Shown in pieces: positions 14,138 to 39,042 of a DNA stretch of 64,000 nucleotides (position 1 is the stretch's first letter; the number at the start of each line of letters is the position of its first letter). Position numbers and translations under genes: made by a program. Under the pieces are notes generated by a model. That model saw only the letters and a program-made list of their open reading frames with translations. It was not told the DNA's origin and ran no database searches. This stretch comes from Candidatus Acidiferrales bacterium (GTDB lineage: Bacteria; Acidobacteriota; Terriglobia; Acidiferrales; UBA7541), in contig JBEKAE010000010.1 of NCBI GenBank assembly GCA_050018375.1, positions 48,808-112,807 of the forward strand, read 5' to 3'.

Positions 14138-15061
14138 TCAGCGGATTCCGATGGCGGCCATCAGGCGGCCGGTGGTGCGTTCGCGGCGATAGCTGAAGAA
14201 AAGATCGGTGCGGCAGGCGGTGCAAAAGCCCGAAACCGAAATCTGGCGCAGCGGAACGCCGGCATCGACGAGGATCGCGCGGTTCGCGGCGATCAGGTCG
14301 AGATGGACGCGCGGCGACGGAGGCGGATGCCCCGGCGGCCTCATCGTGAGCCAGGGAAGCCAGTTCGGATCGTTTTCGCCGGAGGCGAGCGCGTCGAACG
14401 GGCCGTCGAACCAGTCGCGCGCGGCGGGAAACTGCGCGTGAAATTCGCGGGCGACGTCGGAGCCGACTTCGTAGCAGCAGCGGCCGATGCCGGGGCCGAA
14501 CGCGGCGATCACATCCTCGGGGCGGGTGCCGAATTCCAGTTGCATCCGGCCGAGAGTTTTTGCGGCGATGCGGCGAAGCGTGCCGCGCCAGCCGGAATGA
14601 ATCGCGGCGACCGCGCGGCGCTTCGGATCGGCGAGAAGGATCGGAACGCAATCCGCGGTTTGAACGACGAGCAGGACGCCCGGCTCGCGCGTGATCAGAG
14701 CGTCTGCTTTGGGCGCTTCCGCAGTTGCCGCCTTTGACGAATCCGCGAGGTACACGATGTCCGAGTGAATCTGGCGGAGCGTGACGACCCGCATTTCGTC
14801 CGCGCCGATCGCGTGGAAGAACTTCCTGCGATTTTCGAGCACGCGCTCGCGTGAATCCCAATCGGTAAAGCCGAGATTCAGGGCGCCGTTCTCGCTCGCG
14901 CCGCCGGGGCGCGTGCTGAAGCCGTGGACGAGCCAGCGGAGCCGCGCGAGCGGCGGCGCTTCCAACACTTGCAAGCCGCCGGCGCGTCGCAGCGTCCATT
15001 CCGCGGATTTTGCGGCAGAGTTTTTCGGCGCTGGTTTCTTTTTCGTGACGATTGCCGTCAT
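14138..15061 (-). CDS. pgeF: peptidoglycan editing factor PgeF (YfiH/DUF152, laccase-domain protein)
   Basis: LVHGFSTRPGG...LRQIHSD...TADCVPILLADPKRRAVAAIHSGWRGT...GIGRCCYEVG match the DUF152 signatures. Confidence 0.85.
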   Translation of the reverse strand: MTAIVTKKKPAPKNSAAKSAEWTLRRAGGLQVLEAPPLARLRWLVHGFSTRPGGASENGALNLGFTDWDSRERVLENRRKFFHAIGADEMRVVTLRQIHSDIVYLADSSKAATAEAPKADALITREPGVLLVVQTADCVPILLADPKRRAVAAIHSGWRGTLRRIAAKTLGRMQLEFGTRPEDVIAAFGPGIGRCCYEVGSDVAREFHAQFPAARDWFDGPFDALASGENDPNWLPWLTMRPPGHPPPSPRVHLDLIAANRAILVDAGVPLRQISVSGFCTACRTDLFFSYRRERTTGRLMAAIGIR

Positions 15062-15125
15062 GGTTGGTTCAGTTCGATGAGTCCGTCTATCCGAGTGCGT
15101 ATGATGACACGTTCACCGGGAGCAG

Positions 15126-15166
15126 TTGAAGAGAGATCCTTCGTCCGCCGCGGACTCAGGATGACG
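15126..15166 (+). repeat. REP-like hairpin element, copy D (short variant)
   Basis: TTGAAGAGAGATCCTTCGTCCGCCGCGGACTCAGGATGACG. ATCCT/AGGAT and GTCCGC/GCGGAC form an interrupted 11-bp stem. A separate perfect 8-bp hairpin follows (GACGATGC-TTGTC-GCATCGTC, 15163-15183). Confidence 0.65.
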
Positions 15167-15233
15167 ATGCTTGTCGCATCGTCAGGTATAATCCCGCGAC
15201 GGCGCAGGGGTGCTTGGGCAGGGTGCGAAGACA

Positions 15234-15611
15234 ATGATCGTCGGGCTGGGTCTGGATATCGCCGAAGTCGACCGGATCGAGGCCGCCATTCGGCGTCACG
15301 GAGCGCCGTTTCTCGAGCGGCTTTACACGCCGAGCGAAGTGGCGTACTGCGAGAGCTACAAGGATAAATTCGAGCGCTACGCCGCGCGATTTGCCGCGAA
15401 GGAAGCGGCGATGAAAGCCCTCGGCACCGGATGGAGCCGCGGCGTTCGCTGGCGCGACATCGAAGTCGCGCGCGAGCCCAGCGGCAAGCCGACGATTCGC
15501 CTCGAAGGTGTAGCGCAGCAAATCGCCCAGCGCATGGGCGTGAAAAACATTTCCCTCTCAATCACGCACAGCGGGAATTTAGCCCTCGCGCAGGTGATTT
15601 TCGAGACCTAA
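15234..15611 (+). CDS. acpS: holo-[acyl-carrier-protein] synthase
   Basis: MIVGLGLDIAEVDRIE...FAAKEAAMKALGTG...SLSITHSGNLALAQVIFE is the classic AcpS pattern. ATG at 15234. Confidence 0.9.
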   Translation: MIVGLGLDIAEVDRIEAAIRRHGAPFLERLYTPSEVAYCESYKDKFERYAARFAAKEAAMKALGTGWSRGVRWRDIEVAREPSGKPTIRLEGVAQQIAQRMGVKNISLSITHSGNLALAQVIFET

Positions 15612-17017
15612 CGCGCGTTGACTGAAGAGAGATTCCTCGCTTCGTTCGGAATGACAACATCCGCGTGCTGCTGCGGTTCGGAAGTCATGCGCACGATGCG
15701 CCATTCATTCGCAGGGTGGCGGCCCGGGATCCGCAGCTTCAGGTAATTCCCCGTCAGCGCCTCAGTCCAGTCGTCGCCAGCGCGCGCAAGAGTGAGCGCG
15801 CGCAGAGTGCGGCCCGCCTGCGAAGCGCGAAACGCGGCGGACTTTTGCTCCGAGAGCAATCGCAGTGCCCGAGCGCGTTCGCGAATCACCTGTGGGGGCA
15901 CGGCGGCAGCGTCCAGCTTCGCGGCCTCGGTTCCGGGACGAGTCGAAAACGAGAAGACGTGCAGGTAAGTGAGCGGCAACCGCTCGATGAATTCGGCCGT
16001 GGCTTCGAAATCGCCGTCCGTCTCGCCCGGAAAGCCGACGATGACGTCCGCGCCAATCGCGGCATCGGGCAGCAAGCGGCGAATGAGTTTCACGCGCTCG
16101 GCGTAGTGCTCGGCGCGATACCAGCGGTGCATCGCGCGCAGGACGCGGTCGGAGCCCGACTGCAGCGGCACGTGAAAATGGTGCGCGAGGCGGCCCGAGG
16201 ATGCGACCAGCCCGACAAAATCCTCAGTGACATCCTGCGGCTCGATCGAGCTGAAGCGGAGCTGATCGAGCGCCGTTTCGCCGAGGATTCGCCGCACGAC
16301 GTTCGCAAGCCCGGCCCGCGGTGCGAGATCGCGGCCATAGCTGCCAAGATTGATTCCGCTCAGGACGATTTCCTTCGCGCCCGCCGCTACCAGGTTCCGC
16401 ACTTCCTCAACAACGACATCCGGGGGCAGACTGCGGCTGCGCCCACGCACAAACGGAATCACGCAATACGAGCAGCGATTGTTGCAGCCGTCCTGAATCT
16501 TCAGGATGGGCCGCGTGCGGCCGACTCCGGCGAGCGATGCGGAAGCGACCTGAACGGACGTCTGAGCGAAGATGTCGCCAGTCAGGATTTTCGCCGGACC
16601 TCGCGCGAGCGACATCGCATCATCGTTGAGCCGCGCGAGCGGGACAAAATCGGCAGTCGCCGCCGGCGCATGAAGTCCGCGAATTGCACTCGGGATTTCG
16701 GCCTGGTGTGAGTTCCCGACAACCAGCGCCACGCCGTCGAGCGAGGCGAGCTCCTCAGGCGCGCGCTGCGCGTAGCAGCCGGTGACGACGATGCGTGCGG
16801 CAGGATTCGCGCGATGAATCTTGCGCACTACCTCGCGCGCCTGTGCATCCGCCGCGGACGTGACGGTGCAGGTATTCAGGACGACGACATCGGCCGAAGC
16901 GTGCTCAGCGACGAGCGCGAGACCGCTCGCTTGCAGTTCGCGGCGAAGCGCAGCAGCGTCCGCCTCGGTTGCGCGGCAGCCGAAGTTTTCGATGGAGAAA
17001 CTGGCCGTGCGGTCCAT
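15608..17017 (-). CDS. mtaB: tRNA t6A37 methylthiotransferase MtaB (MiaB-family radical SAM)
   Basis: N-terminal FSIENFGCRATEADAAAL, radical-SAM CNNRCSYCVIP, TRAM-like C-terminus. The last ~16 aa (..VVIPNEARNLSSVNAR) are encoded by REP copy C. Confidence 0.8.
   Translation of the reverse strand: MDRTASFSIENFGCRATEADAAALRRELQASGLALVAEHASADVVVLNTCTVTSAADAQAREVVRKIHRANPAARIVVTGCYAQRAPEELASLDGVALVVGNSHQAEIPSAIRGLHAPAATADFVPLARLNDDAMSLARGPAKILTGDIFAQTSVQVASASLAGVGRTRPILKIQDGCNNRCSYCVIPFVRGRSRSLPPDVVVEEVRNLVAAGAKEIVLSGINLGSYGRDLAPRAGLANVVRRILGETALDQLRFSSIEPQDVTEDFVGLVASSGRLAHHFHVPLQSGSDRVLRAMHRWYRAEHYAERVKLIRRLLPDAAIGADVIVGFPGETDGDFEATAEFIERLPLTYLHVFSFSTRPGTEAAKLDAAAVPPQVIRERARALRLLSEQKSAAFRASQAGRTLRALTLARAGDDWTEALTGNYLKLRIPGRHPANEWRIVRMTSEPQQHADVVIPNEARNLSSVNAR
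15623..15657 (+). repeat. REP-like hairpin element, copy C (short variant)
   Basis: TGAAGAGAGATTCCTCGCTTCGTTCGGAATGACAAC. ATTCC/GGAAT arms. It shares the left end GAAGAGAGAT(T/C)C with copy D and lies inside the 3' tail of the mtaB ORF. Confidence 0.65.
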
Positions 17018-17065: not shown

Positions 17066-17740
17066 CTAGGCGCTTGCGCGGCGCTGGTAGCAGAGGAGGA
17101 TCAGGTCGGCCCGGCGGCGTACTCCGAACTTGGCGAGAAGGTTCGAGACGTGGAACTTCACGGTGCGCTCGGAGATGTGCAGGCGGTCGGCGACTTCCTT
17201 GTTGGCAAGGTTTTCGAGGAGGCCGCTGAGCACTTCCTGTTCCCGCCGGCTGAGCTCGCTCGGAGAATCCGCGCGGAGGCGGCGCCCCTGCGCGCTGCTC
17301 AGGATCGAATCCACGAACCGGGAAAGGACCGGGCGCGGGACCCAGATGCCGCCGGAGGCGACCTGCGGCAGGGCCCGTGCAAGTTGTTCGCGAGCCTCGG
17401 CATAGGTCAGGATGCCCTTCACGCCCTGGCGGAGAAGGGAGTAGCTTTCCGTTTCTTTGAGCTTATCTCCCACTACCAGGAGGCGCGCGTTCGCGTATTT
17501 ATCGAGGATATTGCCCAGAAGCGCTCCCGTGGCCTGTCGCGCAGCATGAGCGTCAACTACATAGACCGAAGCGCGGGGCACGTCGAGGCTGCGCAGGTCG
17601 GGGGCCAGGATGGAATCGAGCTGTTTGGACGTGATCTGAAAGCCGCTATCCTCCAGCAAGCGATGGAACTCGTCCAACACCATCGGATGCGGCGACAGGA
17701 GACAGACCTTCAGGCTCGACTTACCGTTTGCTCTGGACAT
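17066..17740 (-). CDS. LuxR-family (NarL/FixJ-type) regulator with an atypical receiver domain
   Basis: C-terminal HTH LSRREQEVLSGLLENLANKEVADRLHISERTVKFHVSNLLAKFGV. The N-terminal receiver-like fold keeps the central Asp (VYVVDAH) but lacks the acidic DD pair (CLLSPHP) and the conserved T/S and K positions. Confidence 0.75.
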   Translation of the reverse strand: MSRANGKSSLKVCLLSPHPMVLDEFHRLLEDSGFQITSKQLDSILAPDLRSLDVPRASVYVVDAHAARQATGALLGNILDKYANARLLVVGDKLKETESYSLLRQGVKGILTYAEAREQLARALPQVASGGIWVPRPVLSRFVDSILSSAQGRRLRADSPSELSRREQEVLSGLLENLANKEVADRLHISERTVKFHVSNLLAKFGVRRRADLILLCYQRRASA

Positions 17741-17857
17741 AGGCCTTATCTCAATTCAGGCTAGCCGAATTAGAGGGCCGGGGCAAGGCAGACACAACAG
17801 GCGATTTCATACCAGATACGGGTGCGGGCGGTCAGGGCCGCACCGCACTTCAAGAAG

Positions 17858-18937
17858 TCAATCGGCCTGAGCCGGGGATTCCGCCGGGAATTCAGCTTCC
17901 GCTTCCAGCTTTCGCCGGGGGCGCTTGGAGGGGAGGCCAGCCTGACGGACCTTGTAGAGAAGCGCGCGGTAGCTGATTTTCAACACTTCGGCTGTTTTGC
18001 GGCGGTTCCAGTGATTGGCTTGGAGCACCTTCAGAATCAGATCGTGCTCCATGCGCCGCGTGACCTGCTGGGCGATTCGCTTGAGAGGGATATTGCCCTC
18101 CGGGGTCGTCTCGTAGGTAAAACTCAGCGGGGTCTTTTCAAGCCGCTCGGTCTGAAGGGCTTCTTCCGACCCGAGGACGACGTACCGGGCCAGGCAGTTC
18201 TCCAGCTCGCGGACGTTGCCCGGCCAGTCCCTCTGCTGGAGCACATGGACCGTCTCCTTTGAAAGAGGAGGCGCCTCGCGCTGGAAACGACGATTGAACT
18301 GTTGGCGGAGGTATTCGATCAGATACGGAATATCCTGGCGGCGATCGCGCAACGGGGGCAGCGTTATGCTGATGACGTTGATGCGATAAAAGAGATCCGA
18401 ACGGAAGCCGCCGGTTTCGATTTCGTGCTGGAGGCGCCGGTTCGTCGCGCAGATGACGCGCGCATCCATGCGCTTCTCTTCGTGATCCCCGATACGCGTG
18501 AAATGGCCGTCCTGGAGGACGTGAAGGAGCTTCGCCTGCAAGCTCTGGTCGAGCTCGCCGATCTCATCCATGAAGAGTGTCCCGCCCTGGGCCATTTCCA
18601 TGCGGCCGGGCTTCGCCGCATTGGCTCCGGTGAACGCGCCCTTCTGAAAACCGAACAGTTCGCTCTCAAGCAGAGTGCCAGGGATTGCCGGGCAATTGAC
18701 CTTCACAAAAGGGCCGTCGCGCCAAGGGGAGCGAGTGTGGATGAAGCGCGCCAGAACCTCTTTGCCGGTCCCGCTTTCTCCCAGGATGAGGATCGGGACA
18801 TTCAAGCCCGAGGCGCGGTCCACCTTCTGCCGGACAGACTGCATCGTCCCGGACGGACCGAAGTAGATGTGCTCGGGCGGCAGTTCGACCGGGTGCGCGA
18901 CCGTCGTCTCAGGTCTCAATTGGGCAGCGGAAGCCAT
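17858..18937 (-). CDS. sigma54-dependent transcriptional activator lacking an N-terminal regulatory domain
   Basis: AAA+ sigma54-interaction module starts ~30 aa from the N-terminus (ILILGESGTGKEVLARFIH, ESELFGFQKGAFTGA, TLFMDEIGEL, WPGNVRELEN). C-terminal Fis-type HTH (NRRKTAEVLKISYRALLYKV). Confidence 0.9.
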   Translation of the reverse strand: MASAAQLRPETTVAHPVELPPEHIYFGPSGTMQSVRQKVDRASGLNVPILILGESGTGKEVLARFIHTRSPWRDGPFVKVNCPAIPGTLLESELFGFQKGAFTGANAAKPGRMEMAQGGTLFMDEIGELDQSLQAKLLHVLQDGHFTRIGDHEEKRMDARVICATNRRLQHEIETGGFRSDLFYRINVISITLPPLRDRRQDIPYLIEYLRQQFNRRFQREAPPLSKETVHVLQQRDWPGNVRELENCLARYVVLGSEEALQTERLEKTPLSFTYETTPEGNIPLKRIAQQVTRRMEHDLILKVLQANHWNRRKTAEVLKISYRALLYKVRQAGLPSKRPRRKLEAEAEFPAESPAQAD

Positions 18938-19291
18938 AACCGGTCAACTGTGTTGCACACCAGACGCCAAAAGTGAGTTGGAGAGGATTCCTCTCCTCGT
19001 CGCCCTCGTGTTTCATAACACACTCATTCGTTGGCGTTTCCAAATGGCGGCCTGGGAGTCGTAGACCCGTTGAACTCGCATTGGGACGTGCGTTTTCTAC
19101 GGCAGGCTGGAAAATAGTTGGCACTTAGAGGAATGGTACTTCCAACTATAGTGCTAGTACCATGATTCAATTTACGCGAATTGTCGTGCCTACGCAGATT
19201 GGAGCAAGCACCCAGCACGGAGGTCGACGCGAAGCTAGCTAAGATTGTGGAGAAGCCAACGAGGAAAGTACTGCCCACCGGTGGCAGCAGT

Positions 19292-19630
19292 TCAGACGCG
19301 AGAGCCTTCGCCTCGGATGATGTCGTAGCGCTCGATCACCGCCGCGACTCCCACCGCTTCCTGATCGTCTTCGGCGCGCTTGTCAACCCGAACGACGCGT
19401 CCGTGAGCGCGAACGAAGACTTCGGTGCCACGCGTGATTTCCGCCGGCAGCGTGAGAGTGAAATCAACTTCGGTGCCGGGGGCGAGATCCTTCTGCAAGG
19501 TGAAATAGACGCCGCGTGTGGAAATGTCCCGTGTCTGACCGTTGTGCGACCTGGGTTCCCGGTTGATTGGCAGGCGAACGTTTACAGCTAGCGACAGATC
19601 GTACCGGCGGGCCATGCGACGCTCCGTCAT
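19292..19630 (-). CDS. stand-alone PilZ domain protein (PilZ-1)
   Basis: 112 aa from the ATG at 19630 (AAGGAG 8 nt upstream). c-di-GMP-binding motifs RxxxR (ERRMARR) and DxSxxG (DISTRG) are present at normal spacing. Confidence 0.8.
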   Translation of the reverse strand: MTERRMARRYDLSLAVNVRLPINREPRSHNGQTRDISTRGVYFTLQKDLAPGTEVDFTLTLPAEITRGTEVFVRAHGRVVRVDKRAEDDQEAVGVAAVIERYDIIRGEGSRV

Positions 19631-19687
19631 CCCTGCTGCTCCTTCAGGCTTGGGTTGAAGCACACAGCATCCCCCATGAACAGAATC

Positions 19688-19703
19688 AGCAATCGCTGTA
19701 CCA
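19688..19703 (-). promoter_or_regulatory. sigma54 (-24/-12) promoter candidate for PilZ-1
   Basis: The minus strand reads TGGTAC-AGCGA-TTGCT (consensus TGGCAC-N5-TTGCW). It lies 57 nt upstream of the PilZ-1 ATG. Confidence 0.6.
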
Positions 19704-20153
19704 AAGATTCGCGCGTCGCGCGACCCCTGCTGCTCGCGCGCTCGTTCCCCTTGCTGAAATGCCACGCGAAGAGCAACCCCTTTACAGACAACGAACGCTT
19801 CCGTGCATTTTCGGTTGTGGGACGATCACAACCTGTTCGAACGCGCCGGGGAATTCTCGCGCGGCCCATTTCGAAGCGGAATACTAGACCAAGCCGCGGT
19901 CAATGGGTAGTGCTATTTCGCCGCATGTGCTCAACATATGCAACTCTTTGCAGGGGTACAGGACTACGCCCCCGGCCACGACTTCCGCGGTTCTTGAACG
20001 AATTCAGACGCGCTGGCTCGCGACTCGGCGATGCAGTGAAACACGGAGAGGGAATGCGGCGCTACAGAGAAGATCGTTCGGGAGGGCGAAGCTTCTCGTC
20101 CTCTCTGTGGAATTGTGGAAATCGAAGCAGGCCGTGTTCTTTCGAATCGCGCG

Positions 20154-21695
20154 CTAGGAACTGCGCACCGCGGGCACTGCGGGTGTTTCTTCTTTCGCGG
20201 TTTCCTTCGCTGCGGTTTCCTTCGCGGCAGCCTCTTTCGCCGTAGCTTCCTTGGCCGCCGCTGCCGTCTTTGCCGCTTCTTTCGAAGCTGCGGAACGCGA
20301 GCCGCGTCCGGAATCGAGATTGAACTGGCGCATCTTGTAGAGCAGCGCCTTGTAGCTGATCCCAAGCATCCGCGCCGCATCCTTGCGGCACCAGTTCGTT
20401 TTTTCAAGCGCGTCGGCGATGGCTTCCATTTCGGCTTCGTCCTTCAAGCCGCGCACGAGCGCTTTGAGGCCCTGTTCCTTGGGCGCAGGCGTCTCTTCGC
20501 GAGGCGCTATGCGCTGCTGCTGCCCGGTCATATCGAGAAGCTCGCGGAAGCTGCCTTCGTCATCTTCGAGGATGACGTAGCGCTTCACGAAATTTTCAAG
20601 CTCGCGCAGGTTGCCGGGCCACGGATAACGCAGCGTGGCTTCGAGCAGATGTTTCGAAGGATCGGGCGCCGCCTTCTGGTATTTTTCGCTGTACTTGGCC
20701 AGGAAGTGGCGGAAAAGGAGCGGAATTTCCGCCGTCCGCTCGCGCAGCGGCGGGATGTGGATCGAGAGGACGTTCAGCCGGTAATAGAGGTCTTCGCGGA
20801 AGCGCCCGGAACGCATGGCGTCCTTCACGTCCATATTGGTCGCCGCCAGAACGCGGACGTCCACATTGACGACCGCGCGTGCGCCCAGACGTGAATACTG
20901 GCCGTCCTGCAAAACGTGCAGGAGCTTCGCCTGAAGGTGGGGGCTCATCTCGGCGATTTCGTCGAGGAAGATCGTGCCCTTGTTGGCGAGCTCGAACTTG
21001 CCGGGCTTCGCGCGCACGGCGCCCGTAAAAGCGCCCTGTTCGTAGCCGAAAAGCTCCGATTCCAGCAGTTCGCCCGGCAGCGCCGCGCAATTCACTTTGA
21101 CAAAGGGCTGATGCAGGCGCGTGGAGCGCAGATGGATCATGCGGGCAACGACTTCTTTACCGACTCCGCTTTCGCCGCTGATGAAAACCGGCACATCGAC
21201 GGGCGCAATTTGCAGAATCTGCTGCCGGATCTTGAGCATTTGCGGGCTGGCCGCGAGGAAGGAGATGTCCTCGGTCAGAGCCTCGCAATATTCGCGCAAC
21301 GCCTGGTTTTCCGAACGCAGTTCCTTCTTCTGGTGGCACTTGAGAAATGCCGCGTCGAGCTCCGGCTTCTCGAACGGCTTGGTCAGGTAATCGATCGCGC
21401 CGAGCCGGATCGCTTCGACCACCGTCGTCACTTCGTTCGAGCACGAGAGCATCAGGACGTTGAGCGAGCGGTCCACCTGCATCAACTGCTTGAGCGTCTC
21501 GATGCCGTCCATTTCGGGCATGAGGACGTCGAGAATGATGAAGTCGGGCCGCTCTCCATCGCCGATCCGCTTGAGGGCTTCCTTGCCGCTCGCGAGCGTC
21601 TCCACCTCGAAGCCGTCTACTTCGAGCAGCGTCTGGAGATACTTCCGGATGCTCGGTTCATCGTCCACGACCATGATCTTTTCTTTGTTCGCCAT
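20154..21695 (-). CDS. NtrC-family sigma54-dependent response regulator
   Basis: Canonical receiver (IMVVDDEPSIR...DFIILDVLMPEMDG...YLTKPF). AAA+ module (VFISGESGVGKEVVARMIH, GAFTGA, WPGNLRELEN). Fis-type HTH, then an Ala/Lys/Glu-rich tail of ~50 aa. Confidence 0.9.
   Translation of the reverse strand: MANKEKIMVVDDEPSIRKYLQTLLEVDGFEVETLASGKEALKRIGDGERPDFIILDVLMPEMDGIETLKQLMQVDRSLNVLMLSCSNEVTTVVEAIRLGAIDYLTKPFEKPELDAAFLKCHQKKELRSENQALREYCEALTEDISFLAASPQMLKIRQQILQIAPVDVPVFISGESGVGKEVVARMIHLRSTRLHQPFVKVNCAALPGELLESELFGYEQGAFTGAVRAKPGKFELANKGTIFLDEIAEMSPHLQAKLLHVLQDGQYSRLGARAVVNVDVRVLAATNMDVKDAMRSGRFREDLYYRLNVLSIHIPPLRERTAEIPLLFRHFLAKYSEKYQKAAPDPSKHLLEATLRYPWPGNLRELENFVKRYVILEDDEGSFRELLDMTGQQQRIAPREETPAPKEQGLKALVRGLKDEAEMEAIADALEKTNWCRKDAARMLGISYKALLYKMRQFNLDSGRGSRSAASKEAAKTAAAAKEATAKEAAAKETAAKETAKEETPAVPAVRSS
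20197..20256 (-). repeat. 15-bp coding tandem repeat (about 4 units) in the 3' end of the NtrC-family gene
   Basis: GCGGTTTCCTTCGCT / GCGGTTTCCTTCGCG, then two degenerate units. It encodes the AKE(A/T)A repeats (..AKEATAKEAAAKETAAKETAKEE..). Confidence 0.7.
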
Positions 21696-21730
21696 CGTTT
21701 TTACCTATGGAGCGAGATTTCCCGCTCAGT

Positions 21731-22936
21731 TTACTCGACGTAGGTGGGTAGCAGGAAAGAAAACGTGCTCCCGCGGCCCTCCTCGCTGTTTACCCAGACC
21801 TTTCCGCGATGCGCCTGGATCAATCGCTTCGTGATTGCCAGCCCCAGGCCCATTCCCGATGAAGAAGGATCGACGCGCACGAACTCTTCGAAGATCTCCT
21901 GGTGAAACTCAGGCGCGATCCCGTTGCCCGTATCCGTGACGGAAACCAGGACGCTATTCGAGCGCCGGCCGTTGTCGCGCCGCCGCTCATCCGAAGGAGA
22001 CGCGTCCGCAACGCGCCGTTCCCAGAAGTGCGGCTGAGCTACCAGCGTCACCGATCCGTTCGCCGGCGTGTGCTTGAGCGCGTTATCGATCAGATTGAAG
22101 ATGCACTGCTGGACTTTTTGGTAATCGAACTTGAACAGCGGCAGGTCCGGGTGAATCCGGACGTCGAGACGCACGTCCGCGCGTTGGAACCCATCCTGCC
22201 AGCGGCCCGCCAGATCGTTGATGCAGTCGCGGAGATCGTTCTCGCACAATTGCAACACGAGCTTGCCGCTCTCCAGCGCGGAATAGTTCAGGAACATCGA
22301 CACGAGGCGCACCAGCCGGTCGCAGCTTTCTTTCGATTCCTGCAAAATCTCCCGTTGCCGGTCGCTGAGTTTCCCGAGAGAACCCGAGAGCAATAGATCG
22401 TTGTAGCCCTTCATTACGGCGAGGGGCGTTTTCAACTCGTGCGCGGCCGACGCGAGCAAGACCGTCTTCTGCCGGTTCGCTTCCTGAAGACGCAGGTACG
22501 CGGCCAGAAGATTCCGGTACGTGATTTCTCTTTCCTGCAGCAACTCCTGGACGGTCTGGCGCATTTGCGCCTCGTCCGCGGGAGCTTCGGTGGGTGATGG
22601 CTCGATGTAGACGGCGAGCCAGTCCGGTTCCGGCAGCCAGCGAATTCGCGCTCGGGACTTGCCCTCCGGGGATTCGAGCGGAAGGCTGACTTCCTGCTCG
22701 CCCCCCTCCAGTTGTCCCAGGATTCCTTTGCGATCGGCGTGCAGAATGTCTCGGAAGAGGTTTGCGTCCGGCTTCCCGCCCCATTGCAGCATCTTCAGGG
22801 CGTTCTGCGCGTGGAGATTGGTGAAGAGGATCTGCCCGCCGCGGTCCGCCACCAGCAGTGGACGATCCAGAGCGTCCAGCAGGCTTGCGACCAGTTGAAA
22901 ACTCGCCTGGCCGCTCGTCTGCTTTTCGGCTGTCAT
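21731..22936 (-). CDS. cytoplasmic sensor histidine kinase (PAS-like N-terminus, HisKA, HATPase_c)
   Basis: H-box AAHELKTPLAVMKGYNDLL. N/G boxes (IDNALKHTP, VTDTGNGIAPE, GMGLGLAI). No clear transmembrane helix. Start taken at MTAEKQTSG (22936). It ends 35 nt upstream of the response regulator gene. Confidence 0.85.
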   Translation of the reverse strand: MTAEKQTSGQASFQLVASLLDALDRPLLVADRGGQILFTNLHAQNALKMLQWGGKPDANLFRDILHADRKGILGQLEGGEQEVSLPLESPEGKSRARIRWLPEPDWLAVYIEPSPTEAPADEAQMRQTVQELLQEREITYRNLLAAYLRLQEANRQKTVLLASAAHELKTPLAVMKGYNDLLLSGSLGKLSDRQREILQESKESCDRLVRLVSMFLNYSALESGKLVLQLCENDLRDCINDLAGRWQDGFQRADVRLDVRIHPDLPLFKFDYQKVQQCIFNLIDNALKHTPANGSVTLVAQPHFWERRVADASPSDERRRDNGRRSNSVLVSVTDTGNGIAPEFHQEIFEEFVRVDPSSSGMGLGLAITKRLIQAHRGKVWVNSEEGRGSTFSFLLPTYVE

Positions 22937-23209
22937 GCTTTTCGCCAACTCGCCCTCCGACGGCTCCGGATCACAGGCTAAAGACACCACTCTCTTGCCT
23001 GCCGAGAGAATCGAGTGGGGATGGTCTCGAAGAGCCGTATGCTCGCAAAAGGTAGCAAGTAGTGTCAATGGTAAAAGCGTCCTACGTTTGCACAATCGTG
23101 GAAATGAATTGCAGCAAATGGGCACATTTCAATGGAGTCGGCCGCTTGGCGGCTGGCACACGGCTCCGTAGGATGCTGATAATAGGTCGCTTATTGGGAC
23201 GCCTTGAGG

Positions 23210-23225
23210 GGGCCTAGAACTTGCA
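23210..23225 (+). promoter_or_regulatory. sigma54 (-24/-12) promoter candidate for PilZ-2
   Basis: GGGCCT-AGAAC-TTGCA has GG and TTGC at consensus spacing. It lies 40 nt upstream of the ATG at 23266, in an AT-rich spacer. Confidence 0.55.
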
Positions 23226-23265
23226 AGAAAATTGGCGTCTAATTAAGTACTAATACTTGGGTACC

Positions 23266-23625
23266 ATGAGCATTAAGGAAAATGTCGTCGATCAGAAGAT
23301 AGCGGTGCCCCTATATGACGAGCGCCGGCGTTTCCAGCGCATCCGTCTCCAGGTGCCCCTGTTCATCCGTGGCCGAGACGTGCACGGCGAGCAGTTCATG
23401 GAGCTCGCTAAGACACTGGATATCAGCGCCATAGGGGCCTTCCTCGCTTGTCCCAGGGCACTGTCGATGAATCACATCGTGACGCTGACGATCCCGGCGC
23501 CATCCATAATCTCTTCCGGCCTAGTTCCGGCGGGGATGCCACCGATCCAGGCGCGCGTGAAAAGACAGCAGGAAGCTGGAGAAGTGCACCTAGTCGGCGT
23601 TGAATTTCTGAAGCCAATTGGCTGA
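23266..23625 (+). CDS. stand-alone PilZ domain protein (PilZ-2)
   Basis: RxxxR (ERRRFQR) and DxSxxG (DISAIG) motifs. 119 aa from the ATG at 23266 (alternative TTG at 23257). Confidence 0.8.
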   Translation: MSIKENVVDQKIAVPLYDERRRFQRIRLQVPLFIRGRDVHGEQFMELAKTLDISAIGAFLACPRALSMNHIVTLTIPAPSIISSGLVPAGMPPIQARVKRQQEAGEVHLVGVEFLKPIG

Positions 23626-23718
23626 GAGTTTTCCACAGACCTTCGACCACCAGCGACAGCCCACTGAGCCAAAAGTGGAACCGCTTTTCCGCTTTTCGCG
23701 CAGGGGGATACAATCCTC

Positions 23719-23744
23719 GCCGTCCGAAACGGCCTAATTTTTTT
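23719..23744 (+). terminator. rho-independent terminator candidate after PilZ-2
   Basis: GCCGT-CCGAA-ACGGC stem-loop (23719-23733), followed after 4 nt by T7 (23738-23744). Confidence 0.5.
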
Positions 23745-23793
23745 CTTGGCAGCGACTTACAGCTGCGTCTTGGGTTAGATTCTTCTCCGGGAT

Positions 23794-23809
23794 TGGACTG
23801 TCCCTTGCT
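23794..23809 (+). promoter_or_regulatory. sigma54 (-24/-12) promoter candidate for the GGDEF-PilZ gene
   Basis: TGGACT-GTCCC-TTGCT lies 66 nt upstream of the ATG at 23876 and downstream of the PilZ-2 terminator candidate. Confidence 0.55.
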
Positions 23810-23875
23810 ACAGTCTTGCTGCCCCGCAGGGACTCCTGATTTCAGGGTAGGTTAGATTCTATTCGGAATCCATTG

Positions 23876-25120
23876 ATGCCCCAGCCCGGCGACGCTTCCC
23901 AGCCGCAGCCATCGGCCGAGGACTCCTTCCTGGATCTGCTGGTAGAGACTCTGGAAGGACTCGACGATTCCGCCCGCGGACAATTCCTGCGGCAATTCTT
24001 CCGCACAGTCGCACAGATCGATCTCCCCGAGACAGAGAGCAACGAGTATTGGCGGCAGATTCTCCAGCGGCGCCGCGAACTCTCCGAAAGCCTCGGAAGA
24101 AAAGTCTCTCTGGCGACCTCCTTGGTGGATGTGCTTGCCTCGACGAATTTTCTGCGCATTCCGATCTTGATGGAGTACGACGATTTCAAGAAACTGCAAA
24201 TCAACGCCGCCACCGACGGGCTGACCGGACTTTACAATCGCCGCCTTTTCGACGAGTACTGCGAGAAGGAATTGAACCGCGCCAAGCGCTACAACCATCA
24301 CCTCGCGATCGTCATTCTCGATCTGCACAAGCTCAAGGAAGTGAACGACCGCCACGGCCATCTGCGGGGCGATCAGGTGTTGCAGCTCGCCGCCACAACG
24401 TTGCGCAAGACGCTGCGCGCTTCCGACTTTGCCTTTCGCATCGGCGGAGATGAATTTGCGCTGCTCCTGCCGCTGACCGACCCCGAACAGGCGGTCACGC
24501 TCTGCCGGCGCGTCCGCACGCTCTACGAAAGCGACGTTCGCCCGCTGAAACTCGATGTTGGAGTGACGCTTGATTTTGGCGTGGCCGTCCATCCGCAGGA
24601 CGGCGATCAAAAGAGCGACTTGCTGCGCACGGCGGACGAAAGACTCTACGAATTGAAGCATTCGGGCCGCACACCGCGCGTCATTCCGATCGAGCCGTAT
24701 CCGCCGCGCGAACCGGCCGCAGCTCCGGCGCCGGCTCCGGTCGCCCCGTCCGTGCCGCCTGCACCTGCGCCGGCCCCAACTCCGGCACCTGCGCCCAGCG
24801 TTGTCCCCGGCCCCCCGCCGCATATCGAGCGCCGCAAGTGGGAGCGCGTGTCGCTGGCAGGGACGAAGGCGCACGCAATCCTCACGGATGTCGGCGAGAA
24901 AACCGCGAAGGTGGATGTCGGCCAGAAAACGGCGAAGGTAATCGACCTGAGCTATGGCGGCGTGGCCCTCCTGTTCGACCGAACGGAAGAGCTCCCCGCT
25001 CAATTCCACGCGGTTCTTCACGTGCCGATTCTGCCGCCCGTTCGCGTCGTCTTGCGCAAGGTATACACGCTGCGCGGTGACGACGGCCGCATGCGCGCGG
25101 GCTGCTCCTTCGTTTCCTAG
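23876..25120 (+). CDS. diguanylate cyclase (GGDEF) fused to a C-terminal PilZ domain
   Basis: TDGLTGLYNRR...RIGGDEFALLL is an active-site GGDEF. I-site RASD sits 5 aa upstream of it. A Pro/Ala-rich linker follows (PAAAPAPAPVAPSVPPAPAPAPTPAPAPS). Then a PilZ domain with RRKWER and DLSYGG. Confidence 0.85.
   Translation: MPQPGDASQPQPSAEDSFLDLLVETLEGLDDSARGQFLRQFFRTVAQIDLPETESNEYWRQILQRRRELSESLGRKVSLATSLVDVLASTNFLRIPILMEYDDFKKLQINAATDGLTGLYNRRLFDEYCEKELNRAKRYNHHLAIVILDLHKLKEVNDRHGHLRGDQVLQLAATTLRKTLRASDFAFRIGGDEFALLLPLTDPEQAVTLCRRVRTLYESDVRPLKLDVGVTLDFGVAVHPQDGDQKSDLLRTADERLYELKHSGRTPRVIPIEPYPPREPAAAPAPAPVAPSVPPAPAPAPTPAPAPSVVPGPPPHIERRKWERVSLAGTKAHAILTDVGEKTAKVDVGQKTAKVIDLSYGGVALLFDRTEELPAQFHAVLHVPILPPVRVVLRKVYTLRGDDGRMRAGCSFVS
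24887..24940 (+). repeat. 27-bp in-frame tandem duplication inside the PilZ domain
   Basis: GATGTCGGCGAGAAAACCGCGAAGGTG / GATGTCGGCCAGAAAACGGCGAAGGTA, 24 of 27 nt identical. It encodes DVGEKTAKV / DVGQKTAKV directly before the DLSYGG motif. Confidence 0.9.
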
Positions 25121-25207: not shown

Positions 25208-26101
25208 ATGGCGCTTACAATGTCTGCACCTACAAGTCTTCCTCCAAAGCGAATTGGCTTCGAGACCTGGATGGATCGTGCGCTCGAGCGAGCCGAACAG
25301 GTGCAGCCCGGCTGGGACGCCGACGACGTTCACGATCTGCGGGTTGCGCTCCGGCGCTGCCGGACCATGGCGGATGCCTTGAGCGAAGTGAATCCCGGCT
25401 CCGGATGGCGCAAGCTCAAGAAAGCCAGCCGCGAGGTTTTTCACACTCTGGGCGATCTCCGCGACGTCCAGGTCGAGCGGGCCTGGGTTCGGAAGCTGGG
25501 GACTCCGGGCGATCCGGTGCGAAAGCACATGCTGCGGCTGCTGTCCGGCGAGGAAAAGAAGCACCGGCACAGCGCGGAGCAGGCGCTTGACGCCTTCGAC
25601 CGCAAAGAGTGGAAGAAGCTGACGAGGAAGCTCGCGTCGAAAGCGGGCTTTTTCCCGGTCGAGAGCGTCGTCTTTCAACGCCTGGCCCTCGGCAGTTTGA
25701 ACCGCGCCGTCGAGCTTTACGGGCAAGCTCGGAAAAGACGGACCAGCATCGCCTGGCACCGGCTGAGGATCGGAATCAAGAGCTTCCGCTATATCGTCGA
25801 AAACTTCCTGCCGCAGCGGTACGAGGTCTGGGCCGACGACCTGAAGCGCATGCAGGACCTGCTGGGCGAAGTGCACGACATGGACGTGCTGCGAAGCAGG
25901 ATTCGGAAGGAAGCCTCGAAATTCAATCCCGCCGTCATTGCCCAGTGGATTGACAGAGTCGAAGCTGAACGCAAGGCCCGCCTCCAGGAGTTCCTTGCGA
26001 AAACCTCTGGACCGCAGTCTCCGTGGCTCACGTGGCGCGCCGGATTTCAGTGGGGACACGCGCCGGTCGCCGCGTCATTTCCGCAGCGGCGCACGGCCTA
26101 A
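25208..26101 (+). CDS. CHAD domain-containing protein
   Basis: Repeated helical His/Arg motifs typical of CHAD (VHDLRVALRRCRTMADAL, LGDLRDVQV, WHRLRIGIKSFRYIVE, LGEVHDMDVL). Confidence 0.75.
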   Translation: MALTMSAPTSLPPKRIGFETWMDRALERAEQVQPGWDADDVHDLRVALRRCRTMADALSEVNPGSGWRKLKKASREVFHTLGDLRDVQVERAWVRKLGTPGDPVRKHMLRLLSGEEKKHRHSAEQALDAFDRKEWKKLTRKLASKAGFFPVESVVFQRLALGSLNRAVELYGQARKRRTSIAWHRLRIGIKSFRYIVENFLPQRYEVWADDLKRMQDLLGEVHDMDVLRSRIRKEASKFNPAVIAQWIDRVEAERKARLQEFLAKTSGPQSPWLTWRAGFQWGHAPVAASFPQRRTA

Positions 26102-26109
26102 CTGAAACG

Positions 26110-26604
26110 CTAGTCCCCCAAGTCGCGCAGCACCTTCGGAGTGAGAATCCAGCGCAGCTCCCAGCGGCTATGCGCCGTGGCCTGCTCGAAGCAGGCAGCG
26201 CCCGCTTTCTTCAGCATAGTAAAAGCGCCCCGCGCGCCCGCCAACTGCGCGATCAACAGGTCCACATGGGGCGCGTGGCCAAAACACGCCACCTCTTTCG
26301 CTTTCAAATGCGAGATTTCCTTCAGAATGTCGGCGGGATTTTCAGCCGGCTTCAGAGACTCGCTCACGCGGATTTTGTCGAGGGGGAATCCGAGCGCTTC
26401 GGCAAAAATCTCCGCCGTCTGCGCCGCGCGGACAAACGGGCTGGTGATCATAACGTCCGGCTTCGCGCCCAGCGCGCGCAATCCAAGCGCCGCGGACCGC
26501 GTCTTCTGCACTCCCCGCGCCGTCAGAGGGCGTTCGGCTTCGGCCGGGGCTTTGGGATCGGTGCGATCGACGGCGATGCCGTGACGAACGAGATAGAGGA
26601 TCAT
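26110..26604 (-). CDS. sixA: phosphohistidine phosphatase SixA-type (histidine phosphatase superfamily)
   Basis: MILYLVRHGIAV (RHG motif)...RPLTARG...ITSPFVRAAQTAEI...FGHAPH. 164 aa. Confidence 0.8.
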   Translation of the reverse strand: MILYLVRHGIAVDRTDPKAPAEAERPLTARGVQKTRSAALGLRALGAKPDVMITSPFVRAAQTAEIFAEALGFPLDKIRVSESLKPAENPADILKEISHLKAKEVACFGHAPHVDLLIAQLAGARGAFTMLKKAGAACFEQATAHSRWELRWILTPKVLRDLGD

Positions 26605-26607
26605 GGC

Positions 26608-28167
26608 TTACGCAACCTTTTCCCTTCGTTGGGCGCGCCGGAATTCGGCTTTGAGGTGGAACTCTTTCTCGAACAGCGCGGCTTTGCGTTCGAGCCCGGC
26701 GACGTCGAGCCGCGTTCCTTCGGCCGCCCGGATCAGGAAGATCGCGCGATGTCCCGCGATCTGCACGTCCACGCCCGAGACGCGCTGCGCGTGCTCCGAT
26801 TCGAGCTTTTCTGCGATCCGCAGCAGCGACGTCAGCAGGCGAACCTCGCGCCGGCGCGAGCCGTCGAGGGCCGCATAAGATGCGTGCTCGATCTGCGGCT
26901 CGGACTTGCAGTTGTGATAACGCACGAGCGCCCCGACCACGTCGCGCCGCCATCCGCCCAGCGCGGGTATTTCGCTGTTGCGGATCAGGTATTCACCATG
27001 GCGGTTGTGCGATTTGCGGTGGACGAAATGCCCAATGTCGTGCAGCAGCGCGGCCACTTCCAGCAGAAGGCGCAGGTCCGGCTCCATTTCGTGAATCGGG
27101 CGCAACTGATCGAAAAGTGAAAGCGCCAGGCGCGAGACCTGGTCGGCGTGCTGCGGGTCGTAATTGAGCTTCCGCGCGAACCACCGCGCCCCGGCCAGCA
27201 GCTCCGCCGCGCGGCCCTTTTCTTCCTCCGACGCCTCTCCGCCCGAATACTGTTCGGCAAGGATGTCGAGCAGCAATCCCTCGCGCACGCCGACTCCGGG
27301 GACCAGCATCGACCGCAGGTCGAGCCACTTCGCGACCGTCGTGATGATGATCGCGGCGATCCCCATCACTTCCGCGCGGTCCCTCCGCACGCGAAACGCC
27401 CGCACTCGCCCGGGCACGTCCAGCCGCAGGAGCCGCCAAGTCTGGTCCCGCAGCAGCCGCACGTTGATCGTCGGCGTTCTCCCAACCATCGGGCCCGCGG
27501 CGAGCCGCACGAGCGCCTCGGCGTTTCCTCCGCACGCGACCGCGATCGCGCGCGAAAGCTTCGGCGGGTTCGGCATCGCGCTGCGCAGCAGCGCCAGCAC
27601 GTGCATCCCCAGCCGCCGGACGTTGTCTTCGTCGATCGCGCCCTCGATTGAATACGTCTCCATCAGCCGGATCGTGCCGAGCGGCAGGGCGATGCGCTGC
27701 TGGAGCGCACCGCGCTCGAAGAAATTCATCTCCAGGCTGCCGCCGCCGAGATCGAAAATCACGCGCGGCTGAATGTTTTCGCCGAGCGCCCAGCGCACGG
27801 CCGAGCAGACCAGCCGCGCTTCTTCCTCGCTGCCGATCACCTCCAACTCGATCCCTGATTTCCGTCGGATGCGCTCCATCAGGCGCCGGTAATTGCGCAC
27901 CTCGCGGGCGGCGGCCGTAGCGACCGCGCGGTACGCGGTGACGTTAGCGCGGTCCATGCGGTCGCGGAAATACCGGAAGACGCGCGCGGCCTGCGAAATC
28001 GTCTCGTCGTCGAGCAAGTGCCGCGTGAACGCGTTGTGGCCCAGGCGCACTGCGGCGCGTTCGGTCTCGAGAAACTGGATCTGATCCGGCGAAGTGGCGC
28101 GCGCGATCACCAGGCGGATGGCGTTCGAGCCCGCGTCGATCGCTGCCAGTTGTACGGGGGCGGCCAC
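26608..28167 (-). CDS. ppx: exopolyphosphatase / guanosine pentaphosphate phosphohydrolase (Ppx/GppA) with C-terminal HD domain
   Basis: AAIDAGSNAIRLVIA, DLGGGSLE, then an HD region (LHDIGHFVHRKSHNRHGEYLI). GTG start at 28167, 3 nt after the stop of the upstream gene. Its stop lies 3 nt before the sixA ATG. Confidence 0.85.
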   Translation of the reverse strand: MAAPVQLAAIDAGSNAIRLVIARATSPDQIQFLETERAAVRLGHNAFTRHLLDDETISQAARVFRYFRDRMDRANVTAYRAVATAAAREVRNYRRLMERIRRKSGIELEVIGSEEEARLVCSAVRWALGENIQPRVIFDLGGGSLEMNFFERGALQQRIALPLGTIRLMETYSIEGAIDEDNVRRLGMHVLALLRSAMPNPPKLSRAIAVACGGNAEALVRLAAGPMVGRTPTINVRLLRDQTWRLLRLDVPGRVRAFRVRRDRAEVMGIAAIIITTVAKWLDLRSMLVPGVGVREGLLLDILAEQYSGGEASEEEKGRAAELLAGARWFARKLNYDPQHADQVSRLALSLFDQLRPIHEMEPDLRLLLEVAALLHDIGHFVHRKSHNRHGEYLIRNSEIPALGGWRRDVVGALVRYHNCKSEPQIEHASYAALDGSRRREVRLLTSLLRIAEKLESEHAQRVSGVDVQIAGHRAIFLIRAAEGTRLDVAGLERKAALFEKEFHLKAEFRRAQRREKVA

Positions 28168-28170
28168 TCT

Positions 28171-29729: not shown

Positions 29730-30194
29730 GGGGGCACACCTAGACCCAAAAACCCATGATACTTCCAAACTTTGAATGGAGCATGAAAATTCTGTTACAC
29801 CCGCCTTACCTGATTCGTTATCCCGCGCTTGTTGCGGTCCGGTCGTCCTCGCGGACCGAGCCCGGTCGGTTGACTGGAGGTTCTCTGCTATCGTCTATCA
29901 AAGGTTCATTCTAGGACTTCAAAAAATCCAAAACGGTACATGCGCTTTGTCCTCAGCAAGTTTCTTCGTGCCTTCCGCCTTCTCTGTGCGGGCTTCCGTG
30001 CGCCGTGGAATAGGAAATTAAGGAGTTCTCTTCCGAACGACGGTTGAACTTTGGCGCCCGGCCCCGCGCGGCGTTTTGGAATTAAGCGTGCTCGCCTTGA
30101 AGTGTCGATCGCGGTCTCCCTTCCGACCTGCACAGGCCCCTATTCCAGACTGAGTTGCCCAACACGTGTCTCCACGTGAGGGCCGAGGTGCGCC

Positions 30195-31495: not shown

Positions 31496-31510
31496 AGGAC
31501 TAGCCAGACG

Positions 31511-39001: not shown

Positions 39002-39042
39002 TTCCCACCTCCATTCGTTCTAGTACACTTGTTTAGAGATTA

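Follow-up and report, generated by a model that had tools for sequence, protein, structure and literature searches.

The 64,000-nt window analysed here (contig JBEKAE010000010.1, about 62% G+C) comes from an uncultured peat-soil acidobacterium, and exact copies of its proteins are contained in peatland metagenomes, among them SPRUCE samples. The nearest genomes are metagenome-assembled genomes (MAGs) named Candidatus Acidiferrales or Acidoferrales (Acidobacteriota, class Terriglobia). Between positions 17066 and 25120 the window carries seven consecutive genes for signalling proteins, which include two sigma-54 activators, a histidine kinase, a diguanylate cyclase and predicted receptors of cyclic di-GMP (c-di-GMP). 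This block, here termed the cassette, is a chromosomal regulatory unit conserved in uncultured Acidobacteriota. Its genes and their two neighbours are listed with position, strand and supporting evidence.

15608-17017, minus strand: MtaB-like radical-SAM enzyme, left neighbour (open reading frame listing and Pfam)
17066-17740, minus strand: LuxR/GerE regulator (Pfam GerE, 67 bits)
17858-18937, minus strand: sigma-54 activator of 359 aa, called EBP0 (Pfam Sigma54_activat, 220 bits, with AAA_lid_14 and HTH_8)
19292-19633, minus strand: PilZ-1, 113 aa (Pfam PilZ, 39.2 bits)
20154-21695, minus strand: NtrC-type response regulator (Pfam receiver domain, Sigma54_activat with 228 bits, and HTH_8)
21731-22936, minus strand: histidine kinase (Pfam HisKA and HATPase_c)
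23266-23625, plus strand: PilZ-2, 119 aa (Pfam PilZ, 34.6 bits)
23876-25120, plus strand: GGDEF-PilZ diguanylate cyclase (Pfam GGDEF, 146 bits)
25208-26101, plus strand: CHAD protein, right neighbour

The domain assignments made for all seven products in an initial annotation of the sequence were upheld by Pfam, and by a structure model for the PilZ domain of the cyclase. No membrane-spanning segment was found in any of the seven proteins by a hydropathy scan (highest 19-residue value 1.51), and the kinase is therefore cytoplasmic, as proposed. Its start was set at the ATG at codon 64 of the open reading frame, in agreement with the gene calls in relatives, and its N-terminal ~150 aa constitute a sensor region without any Pfam match. 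According to the translations, the NtrC-type regulator has an intact receiver domain, the kinase an intact H-box and the cyclase an intact GGDEF motif and RxxD I-site. With about 77-92% identity across lineages, the NtrC-type regulator is conserved more strongly than any other product of the cassette. At the 3′ end of its gene (20190-20262, minus strand) an array of 15-nt repeats specifies a low-complexity AAKE/TAKE (KEAAA-like) tail of ~45 residues behind the helix-turn-helix; the length of this tail differs among relatives, whose proteins comprise 498-513 aa.

EBP0 is, as first described, an activator without a regulatory domain, since its AAA+ domain begins at residue 27 (Pfam). The motifs GAFTGA, GESG(T/V)GKE and DE (Walker A/B) were found in the translations of both EBP0 and the NtrC-type regulator, and we know of no enhancer-binding protein (EBP) bearing GAFTGA that has a function without sigma-54. 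In comparisons with NCBIfam models EBP0 reached 260.7 bits for PspF (TIGR02974, cut-off 443.55) and 292.5 bits for PrsR (TIGR02915, cut-off 502.6), and the NtrC-type regulator reached 369.3 bits for the latter response regulator model of the PrsR/PrsK system, again below 502.6. None of the cassette regulators attained an equivalog cut-off among the PspF, PrsR, AtoC and NtrC models checked. The LuxR-type regulator had rightly been called atypical: the GerE helix-turn-helix is matched by Pfam and its receiver-like N-terminal part is not matched by Response_reg. Its residues 8-222 align with NarP/NarL-like NCBIfam models far under the cut-offs, and the receiver-like N-terminus has lost the acidic pocket; judged by these residues, the N-terminal domain is a degenerate (pseudo-)receiver.

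Both small PilZ proteins score above the gathering cut-off of the PilZ family (PF07238, 22.5 bits) and carry binding motifs, RRMARR (RxxxR) and DISTRG ((D/N)xSxxG) in PilZ-1 and RRRFQR and DISAIG in PilZ-2, and are thus predicted c-di-GMP receptors. The best 120 of 3180 PilZ-1 homologues in metagenomes are 81-100% identical, and among proteins clustered at 50% identity 282 clusters match PilZ-1 at E<=1e-10. In the PDB no match to PilZ-1 was obtained by sequence at E<=1.

The cyclase is composed of a ~105-aa N-terminal domain without a known family, the GGDEF domain, a Pro/Ala linker and a C-terminal PilZ domain. Its I-site RASD and its GGDEF motif are intact; the window has RASDFAFRIGGDEF, and R(A/S/T)SD....GGDEF was present in all orthologues read. 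The PilZ domain is missed by Pfam, where it remains below threshold (15.7 bits against the cut-off of 22.5, E = 0.02). The C-terminal 100 residues are, however, strongly conserved and contain RKWER (RxxxR) and DLSYGG (DxSxxG), the latter reading DLG(F/Y)GG in a distant clade described below, and all six orthologous C-termini that were searched (6/6) match PilZ alone, with a best E of 5e-5. The AlphaFold2 model of the cyclase C-terminus (predicted local distance difference test score, pLDDT, 80.8) is a six-stranded barrel in which no C-terminal helix was modelled. In a Foldseek search of the PDB the top 26 matches of this model were all PilZ domains (probability 1.00, TM-score 0.5-0.69), among them BcsA, PP4397, YcgR, PA0012, MapZ, Alg44, MotI and MrkH. 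By hhalign, the C-terminus aligned with the PilZ-1 family with both motifs in register at E = 0.011 and a probability of just 3.8%. According to motifs, orthologue matches and predicted structure, the C-terminus has a PilZ fold, and the GGDEF-PilZ fusion proposed initially is upheld. At 24886-24939 (plus strand) 27 nt are duplicated in tandem (2.0 copies, 92% match), which adds the nine residues VDVGQKTAK to a loop of the PilZ domain; this insertion is not present in the orthologues read and has a pLDDT <50 in the model. The low Pfam score of the window's PilZ domain is probably explained by this duplication. Among the matches listed, all 120 of 120 cyclase homologues are annotated as GGDEF only, so that the PilZ domain is overlooked by standard Pfam annotation in every one of them.

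Conservation of the cassette was analysed at two depths. Intergenic alignments were built from the window and six related species with proteins 65-92% identical (counts given for 7 species), and three further species (L124-L126) were checked afterwards (counts given for 10 species). Distant loci were obtained by searching representative proteins with PilZ-1 and then metagenomes with two ~45%-identical relatives as query; loci L098-L110 and L127 are referred to as the distant clade. Collinearity of the seven genes extends to 10 of 10 species of the window's clade. As the left flank (MtaB, ACPS, PgeF, RlmN) is constant in this clade, collinearity alone says little. More can be learned from the right flank, which varies in three ways (CHAD/PPX, L31/ThyX or, in one species, L21/L27/Obg), and the break is always located directly after the cyclase gene. 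In locus L008, 5.4 kb of metabolic genes are inserted between the NtrC and PilZ-1 genes, and in L090-L093 an additional gene for a CBS-pair protein lies between PilZ-1 and EBP0 (L090, 10448-10879; L092, 10549-10983; also L127, 10503-10937). The CBS-pair protein has 143-144 aa and is 63-81% identical between clades. No remnant of it was detected by tblastn in the 354-nt gap between PilZ-1 and EBP0 in the window (18938-19291).

The distant clade retains, in 7 loci, the succession cyclase-PilZ, PilZ-2, kinase, NtrC, PilZ-1, CBS, EBP0, with L107 lacking the CBS gene; the flanks are not those of the window's clade. The identities to the window's proteins are 77-83% for NtrC, 62-65% for the kinase, 54-63% for PilZ-1, 53-56% for EBP0 and ~50% for the cyclase; PilZ-2 orthologues, those of the distant clade included, are 53-85% identical. 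A LuxR gene does not follow the activator gene there and occurs only in the window's clade. By their NCBI names, one of the distant-clade MAGs belongs to Candidatus Polarisedimenticolia and another to Methylomirabilota. Loci L114/L115, in which PilZ-1 is 45% identical, contain only cyclase-PilZ and, divergently, kinase-NtrC-PilZ-1, and no PilZ-2. The kinase-NtrC-PilZ-1 genes form one adjacency in every lineage, with L008 as the sole exception. From the gene content of L114/L115 and of the distant clade, the conserved core is kinase-NtrC-PilZ-1 plus the divergent cyclase-PilZ gene, to which PilZ-2, CBS, EBP0 and LuxR are successive additions. On the question, raised initially, whether the seven genes are conserved as a unit, the answer is yes for the gene order, which is syntenic well past close relatives, and not exactly for the membership, LuxR being clade-limited, CBS being extra in many loci and L114/L115 being reduced. 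Of 80 loci fetched around the activators, 77 were paralogous loci with ordinary kinase-NtrC pairs and without PilZ neighbours. In L125 a third sigma-54 activator without receiver (14321-15259, plus strand, 312 aa) has the unusual location of a housekeeping run (obg, nadD-like, rsfS, EBP, rlmH-like SPOUT).

The initial annotation had placed a GG-N8-TTGC site of -24/-12 type before each of the three PilZ-containing genes and had reported no comparable match before the other genes. All three sites are present at the coordinates given. In the window, however, GG-N8-TTGC was found 42 times with 46.6 expected, and sequences with <=1 mismatch to the sigma-54 consensus used for mismatch counts (TGGCAC-N5-TTGCW) were found twice with 1.8 expected. 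With counts at chance level a match proves nothing by itself, and support must come from placement and conservation. Conservation was measured as the number of invariant positions per 17-mer in comparison with the background of the same intergenic alignment, and three elements stood out.

18954-18971, minus strand: EBP0 sigma-54-type promoter TTTGGCGTCTGGTGTGCA, that is TTTGGCGT-N5-GTGCA, with GG-N10-GC
19688-19705, minus strand: PilZ-1 sigma-54-type promoter TTTGGTACAGCGATTGCT, one mismatch from TGGCAC-N5-TTGCW, 55 nt between position 19688 and the ATG
23792-23809, plus strand: cyclase sigma-54-type promoter ATTGGACTGTCCCTTGCT, with GG-N10-GC, 67 nt before the ATG

In 7 species the PilZ-1 site TTTGG-N8-ATTGC has 13/17 invariant positions (background 16%), the cyclase site ATTGGAC-N4-CC(G/T)TGC 12/17 (background 14%) and the EBP0 site TTTGG(C/T)GT-N5-(G/T)TGCA 8/17 (background 7%), and each of them is the most conserved 17-mer of an otherwise diverged intergenic alignment. 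The GG and TGC of the PilZ-1 and cyclase sites are kept in 10 species, L124-L126 included. The three elements stay at a constant distance from the start codon, which for PilZ-1 is 70-75 nt. The PilZ-1 site also precedes the PilZ-1 homologues of L111/L112 and L114/L115, and the cyclase site is also found in L105. The EBP0 site is conserved more widely than the other two, occurring in 10 species of the same clade and in all distant-clade loci. In L114/L115 PilZ-1 has a perfect TGGCAC-N5-TTGCA and the cyclase has TGGTCC-N5-ATGCA (GG-N10-GC); NtrC is the sole local activator in these loci, where both genes keep their elements, which suggests that NtrC originally activated PilZ-1 and the cyclase.

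The third proposed site, upstream of PilZ-2 (23210-23225, plus strand), is correctly oriented and has the 10-nt GG/GC spacing in the window. Of 8 species, however, just two, the window and L124, have a canonically placed GG (the others read AG, AG, CA, GC, CG and CC), and only TTGCA is kept; a sigma-54 promoter is thus not supported here. Two of the three sites thus persist as predicted promoters, and the conserved -24/-12 elements before the cyclase-PilZ and PilZ-1 genes lend computational support to a control of both by sigma-54 activators. The statement that no other gene has such an element had to be revised because of the EBP0 element, which is kept in every lineage examined. The window's one other match with <=1 mismatch, GGGCACTGCGATTGCT at 15855-15870 (minus strand), falls within the coding region of the MtaB-like enzyme, away from any gene start, and was taken as chance.

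Further conserved elements were found in the same intergenic regions.

17758-17786, minus strand: LuxR sigma-70-like promoter candidate TTGCCC-N17-TAGCCT, both hexamers kept in 7 species
19109-19143, minus strand: dyad GGGAA-N6-TTCCC with adjacent GTGCCAAC..TTTTCC upstream of EBP0, kept in 7 species
19774-19784, minus strand: CAAAGGnnTTG, ~80 nt upstream of the PilZ-1 promoter, kept in 7 species
19879-19967, minus strand: block GTTGCATA..TAGAGCACA..GAAATAGCACTACCC..TCTAGTATTC of ~90 nt, ~180-280 nt upstream of the PilZ-1 promoter
23039-23068, minus strand: kinase-NtrC sigma-70-like promoter candidate TTGACA-N18-GAGCAT, 15/17 invariant
23220-23265, plus strand: PilZ-2 upstream element CTTGCA..AAATTG..AGTACTAA..GGTACC (AGTACTAAnAC in the consensus), windows of 12/17 and 11/17 invariant positions
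23671-23743, plus strand: hairpins followed by T runs after PilZ-2, with a terminator-like site at 23719-23733 and a hairpin AAAGTGGAA..TTTTC kept in relatives

The block upstream of PilZ-1 contains windows of 12/17 and 9/17 invariant positions, and its distance from the promoter stays within 182-202 nt; it is a candidate enhancer (upstream activating sequence). CAAAGGnnTTG resembles, judged by the WATCAANNNNTTR consensus, a bending site of the integration host factor (IHF) type, which would give PilZ-1 the classic layout of enhancer, bend and promoter. The EBP0 dyad, which reads GGAA-N6-TTCC in the window, is situated ~170 nt upstream of the EBP0 promoter and is a candidate activator-binding site. 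It was rejected as a common enhancer, as it does not recur at the other promoters; TTGCA words recur in all three regulatory regions, which may reflect no more than composition. The kinase-NtrC promoter candidate sits within a deeply conserved block (23037-23105), and L114/L115 share the GTGTCAATGGTAA element, with TTGACA-N17-CAGTAT. The PilZ-2 upstream element, an unrelated one that reaches the ATG without a Shine-Dalgarno sequence, is a candidate promoter or operator. The hairpins behind PilZ-2 form a probable terminator isolating the cyclase promoter. For LuxR (17741-17786, minus strand) and PilZ-2 (23240-23268, plus strand) there is no Shine-Dalgarno sequence and conserved -10-like elements are only 9-20 nt from the ATG, and the leader predicted for EBP0 has ~6 nt; the mRNAs of several cassette genes may be leaderless or nearly so.

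A non-coding RNA, structured leader or riboswitch in the intergenic regions was considered and dropped, since Rfam yielded nothing at the gathering threshold (whole window) and nothing at E<=1 (18900-24000), and since RNAalifold gave only -6.3 kcal/mol for the stretch of 170-200 nt that separates the PilZ-1 promoter from its upstream block. In the distant clade (L105 at ~2345-2530, minus strand, with matches in L109 and L110) the cyclase has a leader of ~180 nt with the long conserved stretches GACCCAGTACGAATGG..TTGGTTGGTTCCTTGAAATAGTC..CCCAAACCCCGCGGGGTAG, of which the window's short cyclase leader shares only CCCCGCAGGG..GGGTAGG. This leader could be a regulatory RNA element; the Rfam scan covered the window only.

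In the reading preferred here, to which a little more than an even chance is given, a two-component system acts through a sigma-54 cascade on a c-di-GMP module with outputs elsewhere. It starts from the observed gene content, domain integrity, gene order and three conserved elements of -24/-12 geometry, from which we infer the pairing of activators with promoters and the binding partners of the PilZ proteins. The soluble kinase with its cytoplasmic sensor domain would phosphorylate the NtrC-type regulator, both genes forming an operon with a sigma-70-like promoter, and the activated regulator together with sigma-54 would switch on the cyclase-PilZ, PilZ-1 and EBP0 promoters. EBP0 would either reinforce the promoters of the cassette or relay the signal to distant sigma-54 promoters. 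The c-di-GMP made by the cyclase would be sensed by the PilZ domain and I-site of this enzyme itself, giving product feedback, and PilZ-1 and PilZ-2 would read it as trans adaptors on the two-component system, on the activators or on distal targets. The earlier suggestion that sigma-54 activators drive synthesis of the cyclase and the small receptors accordingly remains supported for the cyclase and PilZ-1, which have conserved elements, and is not supported for PilZ-2; because the EBP0 gene has its own sigma-54-type promoter, the circuit would moreover be a cascade or feedback loop and not two parallel activators.

As to the outputs, flagellar, pilus, cellulose and exopolysaccharide genes are absent from the whole 64-kb window, and the description of the cassette as one without visible output genes is valid for this window. 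In distant relatives, however, genes for secreted repeat proteins or exopolysaccharide lie next to it. Directly behind the cassette, L127, L101, L110 and L115 have genes for secreted proteins whose repeats are of the TIG, Big_7, I-set, ASH or DUF1573 kind, and L106 has genes for an XrtA-type chain-length determinant, an ATPase and a tyrosine kinase; in L093 a gene for a CarboxypepD_reg-repeat protein is inserted directly after LuxR. Products of this sort are customary targets of c-di-GMP signalling. Because of the neighbours in distant relatives, the output might, as a tentative suggestion, be cell-surface or matrix production from genes elsewhere in the genome. Upstream of the Ig/TIG-repeat genes of L101 (~6990-7030), L110 (~8680-8720) and L127 (~12560-12600) the sequence CCCTGC(A/C)CCAAAA(C/T)TG..(8-10 nt)..CCAGTAG was observed, which has no -24/-12 geometry in two of the three loci and may be a promoter of another type.

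Several points weigh against the proposed cascade. The consensus matches occur at chance frequency in the window, so that the promoter calls depend wholly on where the elements lie and how well they are conserved. Both the cyclase and the EBP0 element have 3 mismatches to TGGCAC-N5-TTGCW, and the predicted EBP0 leader comprises only ~6 nt in the window. L109 and L110 have only a degenerate form of the cyclase promoter. The PilZ-1 promoter is unrecognisable in most of the distant clade, with nothing recognisable in L098-L107, and in L105/L106 PilZ-1 follows NtrC at ~80 nt. No shared enhancer motif was found that would tie the three promoters to one activator. The rpoN gene is not located within the 64-kb window, and the genomes themselves were not searched for it. 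Finally, the output is deduced from adjacency in genomes other than that of the window, and the organisms carrying the cassette are uncultured.

It is conceivable, if rather unlikely, that PilZ-1, joined by the CBS protein in many relatives, is a detachable sensory subunit on the AAA+ domain of EBP0, which would be switched by c-di-GMP (and adenine nucleotides); the sigma-54 promoter of PilZ-1 itself would then close a feedback loop. In FleQ c-di-GMP binds the AAA+ domain, whereas control would here be exerted via the detachable PilZ subunit. Such a split activator would fit the lack of a regulatory domain in EBP0, the PilZ-1-(CBS)-EBP0 order common to the window's clade and the distant clade, the conserved -24/-12 elements at both genes and the unusual conservation of PilZ-1 (81% identity or more for the best 120 of 3180 homologues). 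The loci L114/L115, however, have PilZ-1 beside kinase-NtrC and no EBP0, so that EBP0 is not the only partner of PilZ-1. In addition, control by synthesis alone would do, EBP0 having its own sigma-54 promoter, and EBP0 stays below the PspF model cut-off.

PilZ-1 might instead bind the NtrC receiver or the kinase at high c-di-GMP and tune phosphotransfer, in the manner of the single-domain PilZ adaptor HapZ, which acts on the kinase SagS in P. aeruginosa (10.1101/2020.02.11.943704). The cyclase product would then feed back on the system that induces the cyclase, and EBP0 and PilZ-2 would be later additions. Apart from this precedent, the adjacency of kinase, NtrC and PilZ-1 in every lineage but L008 (5.4-kb insertion) speaks for such an adaptor, as does the short NtrC-PilZ-1 distance in L105/L106, where the genes are probably in one operon. 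Adjacency alone, however, cannot separate an adaptor from a subunit of EBP0, PilZ-1 is without a PDB relative by sequence, and nothing places it in the HapZ sequence cluster; we regard this explanation as doubtful.

The right flank of the cassette (25208-33012) is polyphosphate-related and consists of CHAD (25208-26101), a SixA-like histidine phosphatase (26110-26604), PPX/GppA (26608-28167), two thymidylate-kinase-like genes and PPK2 (32197-33012). A sigma-54-like ATTGGTTTGCGGATTGCAT is located at 32159-32177 (plus strand), 22 nt before the PPK2 ATG, in an intergenic region of 335 nt. It is very improbable that the cassette regulates polyphosphate metabolism, with CHAD perhaps co-transcribed with the cyclase: CHAD does follow the cyclase by 88 nt on the same strand, with PPX, the SixA-like gene and PPK2 with its upstream motif behind it, but this reading is largely refuted by the replacement of the CHAD/PPX flank by L31/ThyX or L21/L27/Obg in other cassette-bearing species, and the polyphosphate genes were rejected as outputs for that reason. 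PPK2 was likewise rejected as a local sigma-54 target; because the motif is missing in L124 and L126, it probably reflects chance or is strain-specific. A chance neighbourhood of unrelated regulators with fortuitous promoter matches, to which the chance frequency of consensus matches and the genome's wealth of PilZ and LuxR genes (two more in the window) might lend colour, is scarcely credible given a gene order that survives deep divergence and flank replacement and three motifs that are the conservation peaks of their own intergenic regions. Within the 64-kb window there are five PilZ domains; a 914-aa HEAT-repeat protein ending in PilZ is encoded at 39037-41781 (plus strand) and a second LuxR/GerE regulator at 33608-34393 (minus strand).

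If the proposed cascade from the two-component system to c-di-GMP is true, the cassette is a compact and widely conserved switch that turns a cytoplasmic signal via sigma-54 into a c-di-GMP burst and dedicated receptors, and it may, as a master switch, govern how these organisms make surface proteins and exopolysaccharide. Peat and forest soils harbour Candidatus Acidiferrales and related Acidobacteriota in abundance, and more than 3000 PilZ-1 homologues were found in metagenomes; to our knowledge nothing is known about the regulation of attachment or matrix production in these bacteria. The cassette is also a clean test case for small PilZ (and CBS) proteins as trans-acting sensory modules of NtrC-family activators. 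In literature searches no description of it was found. The arrangement is an undescribed, regulator-only one of Acidobacteriota, and every part of it is of a known kind (GGDEF-PilZ, PilZ adaptors near two-component systems, sigma-54 cascades). Existing concepts are thus not overturned, and a specialist would not be surprised.

Sigma-54 cascades are classical, as in FleQ to FleSR, FlrA to FlrBC and the EBP cascades of Myxococcus. The cassette resembles them in that an EBP gene is preceded by a sigma-54-type promoter, which would result in a two-tier cascade or a positive loop, and differs in having no flagellar or developmental structural genes and a second tier without a receiver domain. In the PrsR/PrsK system of the PEP-CTERM box, PrsK is a membrane protein, whereas the cassette kinase is soluble. 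GGDEF-PilZ fusions are among the common PilZ architectures (10.1101/814665; 10.1101/2020.02.11.943704). FleQ binds c-di-GMP on its AAA+ domain and so links c-di-GMP to a sigma-54-family activator (PMC7288161). The FleQ and VpsR systems of Pseudomonas and Vibrio are similar to the cassette as c-di-GMP signalling is combined with enhancer-binding proteins, there to control surface or matrix genes and here perhaps to the same end; in contrast to them, the activators of the cassette are neither known nor predicted to bind c-di-GMP, the predicted receptors are separate PilZ proteins, and the sigma-54-type promoters precede c-di-GMP components and not output genes.

With HapZ-SagS the cassette shares a single-domain PilZ protein with intact motifs that is genetically linked to a kinase/regulator pair; here the partner would be an NtrC-type pair, and the PilZ gene is preceded by a sigma-54-type promoter of its own. 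In P. aeruginosa the PilZ adaptor TssZ sequesters the LasR/LuxR-type regulator HinK (PMC10912698). The cassette likewise combines a stand-alone PilZ protein and a LuxR-family regulator in one block, but this LuxR protein is clade-limited and has a pseudo-receiver instead of an autoinducer domain. In the PspF-PspA and HrpS-HrpV systems an adjoining sigma-54-dependent gene encodes a small protein that acts in trans to control a sensor-less activator. EBP0 is comparable, as it consists of AAA+ and HTH only and as the gene directly upstream encodes a small protein and has a sigma-54-type promoter. Unlike in these systems, the small protein of the cassette is a predicted c-di-GMP receptor (accompanied by CBS in relatives) and not a membrane-stress sensor, and in contrast to PspF, EBP0 is below the cut-off of the PspF model and its gene is itself preceded by a sigma-54-type promoter.

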